DNA from: Octopus vulgaris
Taxonomy: Eukaryota
Assembly: GCA_951406725.2 (NCBI GenBank)
Contig: OX597829.1
Coordinates: forward strand, 26,536,001-26,600,000
Direction of reading: 5' to 3'
Length of the DNA stretch: 64,000 nt
The translations under genes were made by a program, and so were the position numbers. This document shows, in pieces, positions 12,978-62,504 of this stretch; position 1 is the first letter of the stretch; every line of letters starts with the position of its first letter. The notes beneath the pieces were generated by a model, which saw only the letters and a program-made list of their open reading frames with translations, ran no database searches and was not told the DNA's origin.

Positions 12978-13804
12978 CGAGGATAAGTCAATAATTATGC
13001 GCATTCTTGTTACTGTAAATTATTAAAATAAAAGTAGGGTTGAACTGAACAATTAAGTCAATGTTCCAGTAAAGACCGTTTTGCGTACCCCACAAGGTTA
13101 GCATCACTTTTGTCTACAGAAGATTGAAAGTTTTTCTACTCCATAGTTCGCATTTTGGGTTCCATCTCAAAGTAATGGACGCAGGCCTCCCCAAAAGAAA
13201 GCTTAGCGGTCGAGTAAGCGTTGACAGAACCTCAAACGATTGCGCTTATGCGCTTCGATAAGCTCTCTTGACACCCATCTCGCACAAACTTTACCGAAGC
13301 GATGCTTATGAATGATTTCGAAAGTAGAACCATGACAAGGGTGCAGAGAACATGTCACCTCATCGATGGTCACTTGTCGGTTCACGGGGACCATCTCTCG
13401 AGCTTGTTGAATCTTTACGTTCGTGGTAGAGGTCGATGGGATTCCTGCTCTGTCTTCGTGCTTAACGTTTTTCCGGCCAGTTTTAAATTTCTCGATCCAT
13501 TCATTCATACTTTTTGCGATAGAGACCTGTTCCCTAATTGTACTGAAAAGCGATTAATTTCAGCCTCTGATACCCCTTCAGGCCAGAGAAAACAGATCAC
13601 TGATATATGTTCTTCCATGCGCATACAGCCAGCGGAATGACCATGTTTACTCCATAAGAAGTGAAAGGAAACTGGAGCGATCTAAGTCAAACTTCGGTTA
13701 TATAACCACAAGAATACTACCTTTTAGCATGCAAGCGCTGAAAGTAGTGTGGCTAGCCTAGTGCAAGTTTTTGCGAAAGTGAAGATAAATTTTGACTTCC
13801 CTTC

Positions 13805-13884: not shown

Positions 13885-15760
13885 CGTGTGTATAAAAAAG
13901 TTACAGGAAGAACTAGTAAACCTATATCAATCTCAAATGGATGTAGCTTTGCTACATCCAAAGTAGAAAGAATGAAATTAAACACGCCCCAGCAAACAAG
14001 CAGACATCACTATCGTGGCAGACAGTAAACGAAATAAGCGGATGCAAAAATACCTACAGGTCAAAAATTAAAGCTAAATATCCACAGGAACGCTTAGAAG
14101 AGTGGAGGGATCATTTTCAAATTTTACTTGAGAATATACCCCCAGTTTCTGATACAGGTGTAACATAAATTATTGACCACATCCTTGATAGCGTAAATGG
14201 CGATTTCACTAGTGAAGAAATTGAAAGAAATCCTTAAAAATATAAAAACTGAAAAAGCTTCTGGACTGCACTGGACTGCACTGGACTGGACTGCACTGGA
14301 CTGGACTGCATTGGTCTGGACTGCGCTGGACTGGACTACACTGCACTGGACTGGACTACACTGCACTGGACTGGATAAAATTCCACTTAAAGTCTGGAAA
14401 ATAGGATATTCTGTTAGGCTTCTGCAATACAGATATAATGGAGGCAACATTGATAAATGGACAGAGAGCTGCTTACATTTTCAAAGAAAGGCAATTTTAA
14501 TCACACCAAGAACTACAGAGGCATCATTTTTACAACTATTGCTGCTAAAATTTATAATTCACTCCTACTTAACAGGATACAATCAGAAATTGAGAAAATT
14601 TTAAGAAGAAACCAAAATGACTTCAAAAAGAAATCGATCAACTGTCTGGCAAATATTTACAGTTCATTGTACACTGGAAGGAGTAAAAGCCAGAAATCAT
14701 GAAGCAGAATCACTGTTTGTTGAGTTCTCAATGGCTTTTGACTCCATCCATTATGGTAAAAATGAAAAAAATCCTATTGGTCTACAGTATTCCTGAGGAA
14801 ACAACAGCAGCAATAACAACACTAAGTCAATTGTAAGGTCCCCAGACAGAGACACAAGATTCTTTGTCATGAAAGGTGGAGTACTCCAGTGGAACACATT
14901 AGCACCTTTTCTCTTTGTAATAACTCTGGATTATGCCCTCAGAACATCACAACGTTAACAGTCTCGATTTTACACTCGCGAATAGTTCGATCAGGCATTC
15001 AGCTAAAAAAAAAAACTGATTAGACTACGCTGATGATTTACCCTACTGTCTGACGCAATATCAAACTCCACCCAATTATTTTATAGTCTAGAATTAACAG
15101 CGCGTGATGTTGGACTACTTGTTAATCCTAGTAAAACCAAGTTCATTGCCGACAGAATCCACTCCCTTCAGCGGAGACTCCATCAACTAAGGCGATGATT
15201 TCACATATCTTGATTCTGAGATAGCCTCAACTGAAAAGGGTGTAAAAACTCGGGAAGCCAAAGCATGGGCGGTCCTAAACAAACTGAACATTGTCTGGAA
15301 ATCAAGTCAAACAACTTAAAGAGGATTTTTTCCGTGTAACGGTAGGGTCATACCTTTTATATGGCGCAATAGTCAGACGCTTACCAAAAAAAACAAAAAC
15401 AAAAAAAAACAGCAATATAAGCTAGATGGAACTTCCGAATGTTGAGAGCAATCTTAGATATATCTTGGAGAACTCATCCCACCAAGAAACAGCTGTATGG
15501 AGCTGCCTGTTTCCGCCATTATAAGAGAAAGGCGCTTGCGCTTGTAGGTCATTGCTGGCAACCTAAACAAGAGCTAGTAGGTGACCAATGGCTATGGATG
15601 CCAAAGCATAGCAGTAATCGAGCTGGTCGTCCGAACACAACGTATATAGGTCTACTCGCCAGAGACACTGCATGACTCTCCGAAAACCCCCCGTCAACAA
15701 ATGCAGGACCGACCTGAATAGCATGCGCGGGTTAAAAGTGTCCGAACAAGCTCAACCAGA
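13885..15760 (+). pseudogene. Decayed RTE-clade LINE reverse transcriptase
   Basis: Frame-shifted RT motifs in order: NYRGIIFTTIAAKIYNSLLLNRI..ILRRNQNDF, AFDSIH (~14735), GVLQWNTLAPFLFVITLDYALR (~14880), DYADDL (~15025) and C-terminal MLRAILDISWRTHPT..LYG..LVGHCW. A (ctgga/ctgca)n pentamer array interrupts it at 14261-14375. Confidence 0.9.
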
Positions 15761-21147: not shown

Positions 21148-21882
<735 letters not shown>

Positions 21883-27241: not shown

Positions 27242-28011
27242 TCTTCCCTATAGTGTTTCTGTATATCGTAATCGGTATGCAGCTGAGTGCAGTAGTAACA
27301 CGACGCCACTTTATTGGAATTAAACAAAGTGATGACACTCAACGTGGAGGTTTAAACACACTAGCACACCAGTGACAATTGTACATCTAAATGTATGCAC
27401 TGGAAATTTTATATAGTTTATGTGCGTGTGTGTGTGTGTGCATGTCTGTGTCTGTATGTGTCTGTGCATGTGTGTGTATGCATGCATGTAAATGACATAA
27501 AACCAGAAACAATTGATACATATGGCATTCTCCTTGTAGAGAATGTGCTTGTATGCAAAATTTTTAGATAGTCTGATACAATGATGTGGCCTTCATCGAA
27601 GGACATACACACACGTTCATAAATATGTATGCAGCTTTTTGTCCAGGAGAAGTTCCTTTAAAGACATTTACTGTTAAAGAACACAATATACTTCAGAGCT
27701 AGACGAAACAAAACCGCCCAAGAAGTGATCATGATTATGACAGAGACGTATTTCACTATAGTTGCGGCTTATCAATGCCACGCACTCGTGTTACTTTTGA
27801 AGAAAAATTGAATCCAATTGCTTGAAGTATATGGAGTTAAATGCATAAACTATCTGCTGGTTTGCAATGACGCAGCAAAAGCAGAATAAATTTGAATTAT
27901 TCAGAAGCTGCCCCATAATAAAAACACAATCAATACAGCATACTTAATCTATGTGTGGTGTTTAAATAGCAGAAACCGCGAATTTTCGTCCATTAAGTTT
28001 GTATTCATAAC

Positions 28012-28073
<62 letters not shown>

Positions 28074-28081
28074 ATAGAAGG

Positions 28082-28132
28082 AGCTTCTACAGAACTAGAA
28101 CTGTTTCATTCAAAAGAAATCATCAGGAAGCT
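28082..28132 (-). ncRNA. Complete type I hammerhead ribozyme (family H3); truncated second copy at 50815-50855
   Basis: Minus strand: AGCTTC-CTGATGA-tTTC tttt GAAt-GAA-ACAG ttctagtt CTGT-A-GAAGCT. Perfect 6-bp stem I, canonical CUGAUGA/GAA core, 4-bp stem III and GUA cleavage triplet (site at 28088). Stem II is weak, with a U-U at its base. Confidence 0.85.
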
Positions 28133-28214
28133 AGTAGACAAGAGTTGTTTTATTTACTCTGCTATGTATTGAGTACCTTATTTACTGTGGTTAACCCCGA
28201 CTCAACCCGGGACC

Positions 28215-28270
<56 letters not shown>

Positions 28271-28354
28271 CATAAATACATAATACATACATACATACAT
28301 ACATACATACATACATACATACATACATACATGCATTCATACATACATAAAATA

Positions 28355-28392
<38 letters not shown>

Positions 28393-28409
28393 TCTACGTA
28401 TAAGTGCAT

Positions 28410-29340
28410 CAAGTAGTTGAGAACAAAATTCTAATTCAAAGAAAATAGAAATATTTATCACAAAAGCCAATATATTTTTATAGTATTGGTAGACATGCAT
28501 AGCAAACGATTATTGAATAAAACGGCCATCGGCCTTGATAACTGCCTCGATTCAGCTTCTGAATCGACTACATACGTTGGTCAGGTGATCGTTATTCATG
28601 TTGTTTAAAACGTCCCCAATAGCTGCCATCAACGAATCTTTTGCCATTGTGGGCATGCTTGTGGGTCTCCCTCTCAACAACGCCTCAGATGTAATAGTCC
28701 AGGGAGTTTAAATCAGGAGTACTAAGAAGCTAAACGCTAGGGGTAACATGATTGCGAAAATTTTCGAGCATCCACTCCTAGATCACGCAAGCTGTGTGTG
28801 TGAGAGAGAGAGAGAGAGGGGGGGAGAGAAAGTGAGAGAGAGAGAGAGGTATATCCTCCTCTGAACAATGCTCAATCTCAATTTAGGGTCTGCATTGTCT
28901 GGATGTAGATTGCCGCATTTACTCTAAGAATGTAAGAAATCATAAACACGGTCCCCATTGCTCAGACCCCCAAGACATTACACACGATGGGAACTTGATG
29001 TAGAGCCATGTGTCATTCCTCATATTTTGACCTTGAAAAGTTTCTTCTCAGCTGAGTAAAATCAGAGCAAATCGGGGTCCTTAGGGTGCTTGAGTGCTCC
29101 TGATTTAAACTCCCTTGACTACTACATCTGAGGCATTGTTGAGAGGGAGATTCACAAGCATGCCCATAATGGCAAAGACTCGTTGATGACAGCTATTGGG
29201 AATGTTTTAAACAACATGAATAACGATCACCAGACCACACTTTTCTTCGAAGTCTTGTCAAACATGAACTGTCCTTTTGATTTGTACCTCATGTGTCGGT
29301 ATATTACACGTTTAATCGTTGGTGCTGACACCGTGAGATG
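28410..29340 (-). pseudogene. Fragmented maT/DD37D-like transposase with an internal inverted duplication
   Basis: Minus strand gives WMLENFRNHVTP..PDLNSLDYYI*GVVERETHKHAHN and upstream RYKSKGQFMFDKTSKK. 29093-29237 is the reverse complement of 28580-28722. Confidence 0.75.
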
Positions 29341-47529: not shown

Positions 47530-47532
<3 letters not shown>

Positions 47533-47643
47533 GGTATCTTGGTTAGATTAAAGGCAACATTGCCGCAAGGAGGTACATGTCAACGGAATAATACGCACAC
47601 ACACACACATATATATATATTGGAAAGTTTGGAGATGATGTAC

Positions 47644-47755: not shown

Positions 47756-47821
47756 CGTATTATTCCGTTGACATGTACCTCCTTGCGGCAATGTTGCCTT
47801 TAATCTAACCAAGATACCCTT
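47530..47821. repeat. Near-perfect ~290-bp palindrome centred on (TA)n
   Basis: Arms aagggtatcttggttagattaaaggcaacattgccgcaaggaggtacatgtcaacggaataatacgc...ttggaaagtttggagatgatgtacagg and its reverse complement differ only in microsatellite length. Confidence 0.97.
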
Positions 47822-50343: not shown

Positions 50344-50397
<54 letters not shown>

Positions 50398-50695
50398 TAT
50401 TGAAGAGCGTAGGCTCGAAGCGTTAAAGACTTGTTTTATTTATATTTCCTGAGCGCCATACTAATACAATTGTTTGTTTGTTTTCCACCTGCCTTCGTCT
50501 TTTGTCTATTTTCATAAAGCTTCCCGTTATATATATATATATACGACGGGCTTCTTTCAGTTTCCGTCTACCAAATCCACTCACAAAGCATTGGTCGGCC
50601 TGGGGCTATAGCAGAAGATACTTGCCCAAGATGTCAAGCAGTGGGACTAACCCGGAACCATATGGTTGGTAAGCAAGCTACTTACCACACAGCCA

Positions 50696-50698: not shown

Positions 50699-50731
<33 letters not shown>

Positions 50732-51100
50732 GGTCCCGGGTTGATTCGGGGTTAACCACAGTAAATAAGGTACTCAATACATAGCAGAGTAAAATTAATT
50801 TATTATATAGAAGGAGCTTCTACAGGACTAGAACTGTTTCATTCAAGAGAAATCATATATATATATGAGTGCATGTATACACCATACATACATATATCAT
50901 TTAAATCTTACTCGTTTCAGTCATCAGACTGCGACCATGCTGGGGCACCCCACTGAATTATTTTATTCAATACATATATTTTGTAACGGATACTTATTGA
51001 ATCCGTGCATTTTGCCGAACCGCAAAGTCATGTGGACGTTAACAAAGCAAAACAAGCTGTCAAGTAGTGCCGGGTGACCACCACGTGCACAAAGATACAA

Positions 51101-56139: not shown

Positions 56140-57416
56140 CGAGGTGCGATCAAAAAGTATTCCACCATTGGGCATAAGAAAAAAACAATTTTGTACATCT
56201 ATATATATTTAATTTTATCTAATCACCTTCAAAATACTCCCCTTGGGAGTTGACCCACTTCTCCCAATGATCCTGTTTCTGCTGGTTACACCACTGGAAC
56301 GCCCTCTCTAGAACGCTATGGAGCTCCACCATCGCTTTTCTCATAATTTCATCTTACGCCTGAAGTCGCTTCCCTTTCAGCATGATTTTCAGTTTGAGGA
56401 ACAGCCAGAAGTCGCACGATGCTAAGTCGGGAGAGTAAGGAAGCCCGTCGAACAAGTGGTGTGTTGTTCTTGATCAGAAAAGCAGAATGAGCGGGCGCAT
56501 TGTCGAGGTGAAGTTTCTAATTCTTCATCGCCCACATGTCTGGCAGCATCACGAAGGCAACGTATAACCTCCTGGTAGCATTCCTTATTCATTGTTTGGC
56601 CTTGTGGTACGTATTCATGATGCACGATACGACGGAAGTTGATGAAACAAGTCAACATTACATACACACTTCTGCGAACCTGTCGTACTGGTTATTGCGG
56701 ATGCTTCCTTTGGAAGGACTAGAACTTGGTTTCCAGATCGTAACCATAAACCCATGTCTCATTGCCGGTGATGATAGTCTTCATGAAGTCTGGGTTGTGG
56801 TTTGCACAGTCCAGCATATCCTGAACGATTTCCATTCGGAGTTGCTTATGCTGCTCCGCCAGTACCTTGGGTACGAATTTCACCAACACTCTCCACATGC
56901 ACAAATCCTCCGTTAAAATGGAATGCACTGATCCTGTGCTTGTTCCCACTTCAGGAGCAATTTCCTGGATTGTTACCTGACTGTCTTCTATGACCATTCG
57001 CTGAACCTTCTCAATCAGTTCTTCGTTCAGGTTTGTGGATGGCTACCCTGAGTGTGCCTTGCTCTCTACTGAGGTGCAGCCATGTCTGAATCAGTTGTAC
57101 CACTCCTTGACCTGAGATTTACCAATAAAACCATTGTCAAAGGCCAGCTGAATCTTCTGGTGAGGTTTAAGTTTGAGTATCACCAAATTATTTTCAAAAC
57201 GTGACACGTTCGTTCATCTTATGTAAAAACGTAATACTAAGGGCGCGCACTACACGCCTGTGCTCCAGGAGTAACAGTAGAGAACTGACGCATCCTACCG
57301 GGACGAACGTTTTTGTTCGTACGTAGGATGAATGACATCACCAAGAGAGTTTTCGCCTACGCAGCGACTGCTTTGGCGGGAAAAAATAAAGTCGGCTACT
57401 TTTCGAATGCACATAG
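56140..57416 (-). mobile_element. Near full-length decayed mariner element
   Basis: ORFs 56719-56997 (VTIQEIAPEVGTSTGSVHSILTEDL..KFVPKVL..IITGNETWVYGYD) and 56422-56667 (VMLTCF..IVHHEYVPQGQTMNKECY). TA-flanked imperfect TIRs cgaggtgcgatcaaaaagta and tacttttcgaatgcacatag. Confidence 0.88.
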
Positions 57417-58338: not shown

Positions 58339-59665
58339 CAGGGTGGGGCAGAGAGAAAGAACGTTTTTGAAAAATTCACGAAAATCATTAAGTTTAGCTG
58401 CAAACAAATTTTATTGACATCAATGTGTTCGTATTGAATTAACATTTGTCAAAATCAAGTGTGGAAAACAACATCCAGCATGTGGGGTTCGTTTTCATTG
58501 ATGCATTTCTGAAAGCGTTCTTGAAAGTCGGCCACCACTCTCTCCAGCATTGCTTTGTCGATATGGGTGACTTCCACGCGAATAGCTTCCTTCGAATCGT
58601 CCAATGTACACACGTGCCTTGAGGTTTCCCCACAAGAAATAATCACACATGGACAAATCAGGGGACCGTGGGGGGCCAAGGAATGTCAGCAAACCTGGAA
58701 ATAAGGTGGTCGCCGAAGAGGGGGCGAAGAACGTCCATTGATACTCTGGCTGTGTAAGCTGTCGCCCCATCCTGCTGAAGCCACACACGCCAAATAGGCA
58801 TACGTTTTCGTCGTAATTCAGGCACAAAGAAGTAGTTTTTCATCTCGATGTAACGCTCGGAGTTCACAGTAGTAGTGTTTTCATTATTGTCTTCAAAGAA
58901 GTAAGGACCAATCACGGCAGGTTTTCCAACAGCATGCCAGACAGTCACTTTTCGGCTGTGCAGTGGTCTTTCGTGCAGTTCTCTTGAATTTTCAAGAGTC
59001 CAATAACGACAGTTCTGTTGATTTACCATGCCATTGAAATGAAAATGAGCTTCATCACTCATTAACAAAATGAGGTTGTCATTTGCCTCAAAAATTGCTT
59101 CCGTCTTAACGTGCGAAGTTAAGCGACTGTGCATAGTCCCATGTTTTCAACTGATGCCCAATGACCAATTTGTATGGGTGGAAATGCAGGACTTCATGCA
59201 AAGTACGCCTTACCGATCGATCACCGATGCCAAGTTCAGTGGTATTCCTCCGAGCAGAGCGATTCGGACTTCGTATCAAAGCTTGTCTGACGCGTTCCAC
59301 ACTTTCCGGGGTCGGTACTGTTTGTGGCGCCACCACCAGTCTCCTATACATTAGTGTACATCGTGTACGAAGAGTATTCTCCCAGCGTAAGACGGGTGGG
59401 TTACGGGTGGGAACAGCCAGATTTCGGTGAATGTTGAAGTGACGCCGAAACTCACGCTGAACTGCTGTGACAAACTCGCTATTCTTCACGTAACTCTCGT
59501 AGGCAAACACGTGATGCTCTATCCTCCACAACGCCATGACTTCACCTGAAAAGAAAAAAAATGCTAAGACACCACGGATCGAATGGTACCTGTCGGACAT
59601 ATGTCTCTCCCCTGGCGCTGAGTAATAGCCATTTCAAAAACGTCCGTCTACTCTGCCCCACCCTG
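58339..59665 (-). mobile_element. Full-length DD41D (rosa-type) Tc1/mariner element with a frame-shifted transposase
   Basis: TA|CAGGGTGGGGCAGAG...CTCTGCCCCACCCTG|TA TIRs. ORFs 59106-59600 (HTH; AVQREFRRHF, SPNRSARR, HPYK), 58658-59134 (MSDEAHF, WLQQDGATAY) and 58495-58827 (RSPDLSMCDYFLWG). Joining across the WPP frameshift gives 41 residues between the second and third Asp. Confidence 0.93.
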
Positions 59666-61595: not shown

Positions 61596-62504
61596 CGAAA
61601 TAGTATCAAAAAGTTCCCGGACTAGTTCTGTAGCGCGCCAACAGATGGCAGCACACGGTTGCGTGCGTAATGAGAGTTATCAGTGATCTTCATGAGGCAG
61701 TGTGCCGAGTGACATCGCTGCATCTATTTCGCATGTTGTGAAATTTGTGCTTTTGTGATCACGTGTATGCTGTAGTCTGCGATTTTGTCATGGACAGGAA
61801 CAAAGAGCCAACGTGAAATTTTACGTTAAACTTGGGAAGTCTGCTACAGAGACACTGGGTATGCTCCGGTAAGCTTAGGCGACTAGACATTGCGTTGTAC
61901 GCAATGTTTCGGGTATCACGGACGCTTCATATGTGGAAGAACATCCATGGAATACGACGACCGTTCTGGAAGACCTCCCATGAGCGTCAACCCCGGAAAT
62001 GCGGTATTGCACATCGAGAATTCTCCCCCATCGAGAATTCTCCTCTGCGACGTTTTGAAGCGTTTGAAGGAAGACATTCGGCGAATGTGACTGAATCTGT
62101 GAAGCACGAAGAATTGGATTCTTCACAACGACAATTCACCAGTCACCGAGCTCTCCTCACTCGTGAGTCTCTCGCCAAAAGCAACAGGTATTACTTCCGA
62201 AACCCGCCCTTTTCGCCAGATTTAGCACCTGCGGACTTCCATCTCTTCTCCAAATTGGAAATGCAGCTCAAAGGTCGCCGTTTTAACTCTGTTGTCGAGA
62301 CACCAGAGCGAATCGCAGAAGATCCTCGACTCGCTTACAGAAAATGATTTCCATGCTGGATTCCAAAAGTGACAGGAACGCTGGTGTCGGTGTATTGTTG
62401 TAGAAAGTGACTATTTCGAAAGAGGTGATGTTAAAACTTAGATAAATAAGTTAGTTATTTTTCATCAAACATAACAAGTCCTGGAGCTTTTGTATACCAC
62501 CACG
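61596..62504 (+). mobile_element. Internally deleted mariner element with both TIRs
   Basis: TA-flanked TIRs cgaaatagtatcaaaaagttcccggactagtt and aacaagtcctggagcttttgtataccaccacg. Remnants EQRANVKFYVKLGKSATET, GRTSMEYDDRSGRP and PPFSPDLAPADFHLFSKLEMQLKGRRF. Confidence 0.9.

Follow-up and report, generated by a model that had tools for sequence, protein, structure and literature searches.

Two short insertions of a probable Hydra-like Penelope-like element family, one of them apparently inverted, in (TA)n repeats of Octopus vulgaris

The stretch of Octopus vulgaris DNA analysed here, 64,000 nucleotides long and referred to as the window, contains two short and closely similar elements, copy A (28071-28218) and copy B (50728-50856), in which a type I hammerhead sequence, truncated in B, and a structured tail are combined in different relative orientations. 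We read them, with a probability of about three in four, as the 3'-terminal 130-160 bases of one Penelope-like element (PLE) family, most like those of the Hydra clade, inserted recently on two separate occasions, with B colinear and A inverted. The sequence anatomy, the common 3' end, the non-overlap of the two halves of A and the TA flanks are directly observed.

The two loci and their (TA)n targets

The window is A/T-rich, microsatellite-laden animal DNA, with 19,711 of its 64,000 bases masked as tandem repeats. Within it, BLASTN aligns a hammerhead module in the same orientation at both loci (28073-28123 with 50806-50856; 49/51 identical, E 4e-19) and a tail module in opposite orientations (28153-28218 with 50793-50728; 65/66 identical, E 2e-28). 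Searches with BLASTN and nhmmer profiles of both modules returned only A and B from the window, the next-best match having an E-value of 0.87. The features of the two loci are as follows.

28012-28070, no strand: (TA)n target, left flank of A (TRF; runs 28012-28020 and 28021-28070)
28071-28081, minus: bases following stem I on its 3' side, with the start of the AT-rich linker; they form the outer end of the inverted piece of A
28082-28132, minus: type I hammerhead in the style of Hydra-clade PLEs (descriptor; architecture compared by eye with rows of File S2 of PMC8557442)
28091-28102, minus: 6-nt tandem duplication in loop III, creating a CUAG palindrome
28133-28152, minus: upstream flank of the ribozyme, in A only; its right edge is the inversion breakpoint region
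28153-28218, plus: 3' tail, which makes up the direct piece of A and has its fixed end at 28217/28218
28218-28264, no strand: (TA)n target, right flank of A
50699-50728, no strand: (TA)n at the 3' end of B
50728-50793, minus: 3' tail of B, with the same terminal base as A
50794-50805, minus: AT-rich linker with AATAAA (50804-50799), between the ribozyme flank and the tail of B
50806-50856, minus: 5'-truncated hammerhead of B, broken inside the core; cut-site base 50821
50855-50866, no strand: short (AT)6 where B is truncated on its 5' side, with 2 bases common to the element

Copy A carries 29 bases upstream of the common ribozyme part that are absent from B, and B carries a linker that is missing wholly or partly from A; a masked self-comparison of the window found no similarity between the flanks of A and those of B. 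Each copy holds bases missing from the other and the flanks are unrelated; neither locus can therefore be the sole parent of the other, a third copy must serve or have served as the source, and a segmental duplication is ruled out. Three differences separate the two copies over 116 bases (2.6%, 95% interval 0.5-7.4%). All three substitutions lie in loops, which would be expected by chance with a probability of about 0.11, and this is not significant evidence that the RNA fold is under selection.

A preliminary description of this DNA had given the coordinates and the rearranged module order, both borne out by the BLASTN matches, and had proposed a young family, for which the 3 differences in 116 bases speak as well. 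It had the modules of B directly joined: the same and opposite orientations it gave are those found here, and a 12-nt AT-rich linker (50794-50805) separates the two modules. The loss of CTG from the core of B to (TA)n is likewise real and larger than it stated, with the whole 5' strand of stem I and the upstream flank also gone. Its placement of (TA)n on both sides of both copies, and of the insertions in TA repeats, agrees with the ends described next.

All four ends of the two insertions adjoin (TA)n runs, compared with 8 of the 72 ends of 36 other repeat segments, and the chance of two independent insertions both falling in (TA)n is about 0.01-0.02. The right-hand run of B is short (6 units, 50855-50866), and a target-site duplication is unreadable inside (TA)n. 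Nearly all Hydra families insert into (TA)n according to Craig et al. 2021 (PMC8557442); as this targeting is common to Hydra, Naiad and Neptune, it is not diagnostic of the Hydra clade.

The tail contains a hairpin (28155-28159/28171-28175) and a terminal stem-loop (28196-28199/28208-28211) with an A/C-rich loop, at the base of which the tail ends. Both copies end on the same tail base and differ in their 5' extents, the combination of fixed 3' end and variable 5' truncation by which PLEs are recognised. The element contains no start codon with an open frame, a 27-base stretch of its tail had 0 matches in GTDB genomes, and a (spurious) translation of A drew no candidates from the protein set in either length class, which is weak evidence. 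A 10-base A/T palindrome in the linker of B was considered as a junction scar; 70 of 614 A/T-only 10-mers are palindromic, and that reading was therefore dropped.

Other repeats surround the two loci, with many SINE-like and mariner-like remnants among them. One SINE-derived reading frame matches one Octopus vulgaris protein among 9 candidates (E 1e-12). Tc1/mariner transposase remnants lie at 13206-13553 (Pfam E 0.003) and 56425-57042 (Pfam E 1.5e-5), and two further stretches, 58498-59633 and 61817-62344, we take by eye to be remnants of the same kind. A short reverse-transcriptase remnant at 14457-14699 on the plus strand (RVT_1 E 0.0014) is probably LINE-derived. Just to the right of copy A, a 146-base inverted repeat pair that is 91% identical (28578-28723 and 29093-29237) probably marks the ends of a small DNA transposon, and a 66-base inverted repeat pair between microsatellites (47530-47595 and 47756-47821) is MITE-like.

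The hammerhead and its predicted fold

The hammerhead of copy A is real by pattern. On the minus strand, and numbered as in PMC4209133, it comprises a stem I of 6 bp (28132-28127 with 28087-28082), the core CUGAUGA at 28126-28120, a 12-nt stem II region (28119-28108), GAA at 28107-28105, a helix III of 4 bp with an 8-nt loop (28104-28089) and the triplet GUA with A17 at 28088, after which the cut is predicted. Copy A has every element of the type I pattern (CUGANGA core, GAAA, NUH, three stems, ends in stem I); B is truncated, and its stem I is impossible in cis. A type I hammerhead descriptor found a single site in the window, which is copy A, and in 300 dinucleotide shuffles of the window's 43,566 non-microsatellite bases a loose match arose in 3 and an equally good one in none.

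The canonical form is not reached in stem II, which has 3 U/A-rich bp instead of 4 and is closed in both copies by U·U instead of G10.1-C11.1, and constrained folds have no closing stem beyond stem I. At the gathering score, Rfam recognises no family in the whole window, and at E<=10 there is no hammerhead family among 42 matches for 27900-28400 or among 5 for 28071-28160; the best match, the box C/D snoRNA SNORD102 (19.3 bits, E 0.43), falls far under its 47-bit cut-off. The three stems and the GUA site of what had been called a textbook complete hammerhead are thus present, and the word "textbook" does not suit a 3-bp stem II with U·U that Rfam does not recognise as a hammerhead. Nor is the base of stem II damaged, as had been supposed: because U·U occurs in both copies and in 14 of the 25 Hydra-clade PLE families whose ribozymes are given in File S2 of Craig et al. 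2021 (PMC8557442; core CUGANGAU...UGAA, with G-C in 7 families, G·U in 3 and U·C in 1), it is a family trait. By contrast, the consensus drawn from 56 metazoan PLE-type ribozymes shows a bulged base together with a G-C pair (PMC4209133, in an extract with garbled column order).

Folding predictions give the active structure a share of 0.07 in the bare 51-mer, 0.014 in the RNA 28075-28140 earlier suggested for a cleavage assay and 0.0006 once the natural flanks are included, and the folding z-score is -0.02. With these flanks, a competing 8-bp hairpin (inverted repeat 28075-28080/28084-28089), in which 28071-28081 can pair with the cut site, is predicted to cover that site; it is possible in both copies. 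With about 1.4% of the RNA 28075-28140 predicted to be active, a negative monomer assay would refute nothing, and failure of this RNA to self-cleave is not the valid refuter it had been proposed to be.

Helix III is a near-perfect palindrome in which 12 of 16 positions pair in a self-duplex, as in the dimers of PLE-type ribozymes, and the intermolecular duplex has a calculated energy of -14.2 kcal/mol against -4.0 kcal/mol for two hairpins. By lengthening loop III and creating the CUAG palindrome, the 6-nt duplication at 28091-28102 is predicted to favour an intermolecular helix III; the helix III unit is duplicated in A and single in Hydra-1_Amil, and this is the sole difference between the two helices. 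As a monomer the ribozyme is likely to cut poorly, and it probably depends on dimerisation or on the protein of the element. PLE ribozymes have been described as having a palindromic helix III, dimer function and low activity (Cervera 2014, PMC4209133; PMC6765202), and the ribozyme of PAc cuts only with its protein and is dispensable for insertion in vitro (PMC11167929).

Several other hammerhead-like sequences were noted in the window. On the minus strand, 21295-21882 consists of two direct repeats of about 110 bases, some 473-476 bases apart, the second of which ends on a long (TA)n; between them lies a hammerhead-core-like motif (21578-21541, minus) with a possible 5-bp stem I and an irregular stem III but no Rfam ribozyme match, and a G+C-rich stretch extends upstream to about 22150. 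The layout suggests either a second PLE whose 3' end is in partial tandem or a retrozyme-like unit. A 74%-identical repeat beside SINE copies (50395-50505, plus, and 11022-10915, minus) starts with a degenerate minimal hammerhead that has a 3-bp stem II closed by G-C and a minimal stem III; it is probably an older Penelope-type remnant. At 1900-2030 on the minus strand, a CTGATGA half-core and GAAA stand on either side of a long A/T-rich hairpin (-27 kcal/mol), in a stretch that also has a short inverted repeat near 2250-2360; whether this is a ribozyme remnant is doubtful.

Family likeness, polarity and insertion

The nearest published relatives are Hydra-clade families such as Hydra-1_Amil, Hydra-2_Amil, Hydra-2_Ajap and Penelope-n_HM (PMC8557442), with which the element has in common a sense-strand type I hammerhead near the 3' end, the short stem II with U·U, the stem III arms ACAG/CUGU, A at the cut site, a hairpin tail and (TA)n flanks. 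The arms ACAG/CUGU occur in 4 of the 25 families (Hydra-1_Amil, Penelope-1_NV, -1_SK and -2_SK) and A at the cut site in 12 (PMC8557442). Compared by eye, three of six novel Hydra consensuses, the long-tailed 2_Amil, 2_Ajap and 1_Crog, have after the sense-strand ribozyme an A/T-rich spacer followed by a hairpin of RCTC...GAG..YAC form, an order also present in B; Hydra-2_Amil has TGTATTGAGYAC, a 12-base word with one mismatch, in common with the tail. Such a match has a rough chance of 0.1-0.2 across six 3' ends, and each tail likeness alone is modest; among the matches listed for short element words in the Hydra 3' ends of the Craig supplement, the 2_Amil word was the only one. Loop III has 8 nt here and 1-3 nt in the 25 listed families, and the stem II of our element is only 3 bp long and U/A-rich.

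The Hydra clade is defined by reverse-transcriptase (RT) phylogeny, RWK and DKT motifs, a CxCX5C linker and the lack of a CCHH motif (PMC8557442). Of 212 non-microsatellite frames of at least 50 amino acids, 150 were scanned against Pfam, with the 62 shortest left out, and they gave no GIY-YIG match and one weak RVT_1 match (E 0.0014, 14 kb away), an absence expected for short stubs that leaves no ORF for placement in a tree. Since the clade is assigned from RT and endonuclease motifs, and the scanned frames contained no ORF with them, we call the element Hydra-like and not a proven member. The sense-strand ribozyme near the 3' end, the clade-typical core and the tail hairpin, with letters compared by eye, are those of the Hydra type, and the Penelope-like origin earlier proposed is supported.

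Hydra-1_Obim of Octopus bimaculoides, probably from the same host genus, resembles the element in belonging to the Hydra clade, in its (TA)n preference and in having one fixed end, but has a different ribozyme (a stem II of 7 bp with G·U at its base, and U as the cut-site base) and an end of 36 nt, and we consider it an apparently distinct family. Naiad PLEs, which also target (TA)n, lack a canonical ribozyme, whereas a three-stem ribozyme is present here. Four short element words had no match in the Naiad 3' ends of the Craig supplement among the matches listed, and identity with the octopus Naiads is not supported by word searches of this kind, which can miss matches across the line breaks of the supplement. 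No account of this family turned up in the literature searched, and it may well already be listed in Repbase, Dfam or the repeat library of O. vulgaris.

The two copies could also derive from a short non-autonomous unit of about 150-400 bases (a mini-PLE, a SINE-like or a retrozyme-like monomer), mobilised in trans by a Hydra-type protein, with insertion as set out below, rather than being stubs of a 2-3 kb element; we give this a minority share, the largest among the alternatives. Both copies are shorter than 150 bases and have no ORF remnant beside them; their number in 64 kb would extrapolate to about 31 per Mb (95% interval 4-113), a figure biased upward because the window was chosen for these copies; and animal retrozymes have been proposed to be non-autonomous PLE derivatives (bioRxiv 10.64898/2026.07.22.740005). 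Heavy 5' truncation is, however, normal for PLEs (PMC8557442), and the inversion cuts the upstream flank of A, so that the 5' limit of the element is not visible. Non-LTR retrozymes (Cervera and de la Pena 2020, PMC7229834; bioRxiv 10.64898/2026.07.22.740005) are likewise short, non-coding and PLE-related, with a type I hammerhead, yet they form tandem units of about 220-390 bp with canonical ribozymes, whereas dispersed single stubs are seen here: the window holds one complete ribozyme and no tandem unit, where a retrozyme has at least two units, each with a complete ribozyme.

Returning to two insertions of a longer PLE, the orders found in A and B are formally symmetric, and evidence from outside the window is needed to tell which copy is colinear. 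From the cut to the 3' end there are 93 nt in B, and there would be 17 if the left end of A were the true end. In 24 Hydra families, one of the 25 being omitted since its ribozyme is listed at its 5' end, this distance ranges from 30 to 355 with a median of 79, and none has 20 or less (PMC8557442). As 93 lies within this range and 17 outside it, and as the tail of B is oriented as in published Hydra 3' ends, we take B to be colinear. This is the polarity given in the preliminary description, which saw in A the product of a Penelope-like inversion on integration; A does have the published PLE layout of an inverted 5'-truncated piece with a one-sided tail, typical of PLE insertions (PMC8557442; PMC3846280), here with halves that do not overlap. 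The Hydra-clade family Penelope-13_HM also has an inverted 5' piece, and unlike A it carries the ribozyme on both strands. The partial tandem (pseudo-LTR) arrangement, optional in truncated copies, is absent from both stubs. The tail copy of A stops 7-12 bases short of the start of the inverted piece, and the breakpoint is uncertain within about 28140-28153: it lies at 28152/28153 or no more than about 13 nt further left.

The opposite polarity, in which the plus strand of A has the true order and B is rearranged, would require a source core flipped between the 6-bp stem I arms or lying antisense, or a longer native linker to which that of B is secondary, and we regard it as unlikely. The symmetry of the arrangements allows it (29 bases would then have been lost in B); on the plus strand of A, 20 bases separate the stem I arm from the tail as against 21 in B, and this stretch, which lengthens an internal direct repeat of 12 bases by another 3, holds, just before the tail, AGTTGTWTT, a motif found after the ribozyme in 8 of the 25 Hydra rows (PMC8557442). 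The motif occurs 6 times in the window where 2.3 are expected, its other 5 sites lying in unrelated contexts, and its position in A hints that the breakpoint or the linker may be less simple than drawn. Yet the ribozyme is on the sense strand in 25 of 25 Hydra families (in one also in an inverted copy; PMC8557442), the A/T-rich linker of B resembles those of 2_Ajap and 1_Crog, and this polarity calls for an extra rare event.

With B colinear, the source RNA would run from the upstream flank through the hammerhead, the AT-rich linker and the hairpin tail to the 3' end. A PLE protein encoded elsewhere would nick (TA)n DNA and reverse-transcribe from the fixed end of the 3' tail. Copy B would be a plain 5'-truncated retrocopy, in which copying halted after 129 bases inside the core and the product was joined to the TA run. 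In copy A, as its one junction suggests, both target strands may have served as cDNA primers: one would have copied the 66-base tail, and the second, starting at the AT-rich linker (28071 end, 17 nt past the cut), about 80 bases through the ribozyme, after which the two cDNA ends would have been joined head to head with the loss of 7-12 linker bases. The ribozyme would be a passenger of the terminal repeat of the element, with any catalysis putative.

L1 elements have a poly(A) end and an APE endonuclease and lack a hammerhead, whereas the element here has at its 3' end a structured tail that abuts (TA)n. Twin-primed L1 inversions (Ostertag and Kazazian 2001, via PMC2246262) nevertheless offer a parallel in their direct 3' piece and inverted upstream piece, one primed from each side of the break, without overlap. 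Arkhipova et al. explained PLE inverted repeats with junction palindromes by self-priming (PMC3846280); since the halves of A abut on the template without overlap, two priming events on one RNA are favoured over that model. Frangieh et al. 2024 (PMC11167929) found that the purified protein of the Poseidon element PAc of Anolis cleaves A/T-rich DNA, uses both of its strands as primers and begins copying inside the RNA, 85-92 nt past the ribozyme cut, in an A/C-rich stem-loop. PAc resembles the present case as reconstructed here in both-strand priming, in two RNA start sites that define a one-sided tail, in an A/C-rich stem-loop about 90 nt past the cut and in a protein-assisted ribozyme, and differs in clade, in an ORF that starts inside the ribozyme (here there is no open frame with a start codon) and in a tail of 30-40 nt as against what would be about 75 here; across clades, the parallel between the stem-loops may be a coincidence.

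Still less probable than the opposite polarity is a colinear insertion of A that was later inverted at the DNA level, by recombination of the (TA)n flank with TATATA of the linker or by end-joining repair. A (TA)n run is its own reverse complement and the linker of B does hold TATATA (50804-50809), but recombination would leave TA repeats and the remaining linker at the inner junction, where A has neither, and end-joining would need two breaks in a 150-base insert. Least credible of all is a chance match or another small RNA beside unrelated repeats that landed in the same TA runs, a reading for which the lack of an Rfam hammerhead, the folding z-score near zero and the SNORD102 match can be cited, and against which stand the shuffles, the distance of SNORD102 from its cut-off and the fact that the modules occur only together (2/2 loci in the window) and are joined in A with no TA run between them.

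Abundance and meaning for PLE biology

The element is ordinary in kind, ribozyme-bearing PLE stubs being common in animal genomes, and every general feature of it is already published. In O. vulgaris, 190 PLE families make up 6.83% of the genome, and 31 of them were recently active (PMC13282606). The two copies are of modest use in pointing to a Hydra-type family that is apparently distinct from the described octopus family Hydra-1_Obim and is missed by Rfam, and copy A is an unusually compact inversion in which the halves abut instead of overlapping. The origin of PLE inversions and of microsatellite targeting has been called an open question (PMC8557442); one example cannot settle where the inversions come from, and a genome-wide count could.

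A bolder proposal, which we hold as a long shot, rates somewhat below the non-autonomous unit and above the opposite polarity. The element would be an abundant and still mobile octopus mini-element with at least thousands of copies, whose inversions arise from a single RNA: the (TA)n target would pair with the AU-rich linker, which can do so over about 3 bases, and this pairing would supply the second primer and stop the first cDNA. If true, it would tie together the microsatellite bias, the one-sided tail and the head-to-head inversions, which are unexplained PLE traits, and would offer a genome-scale set of short, countable junctions for testing. The ribozyme would then be kept inactive by the hairpin over its cut site until a dimer formed or the protein of the element was bound.
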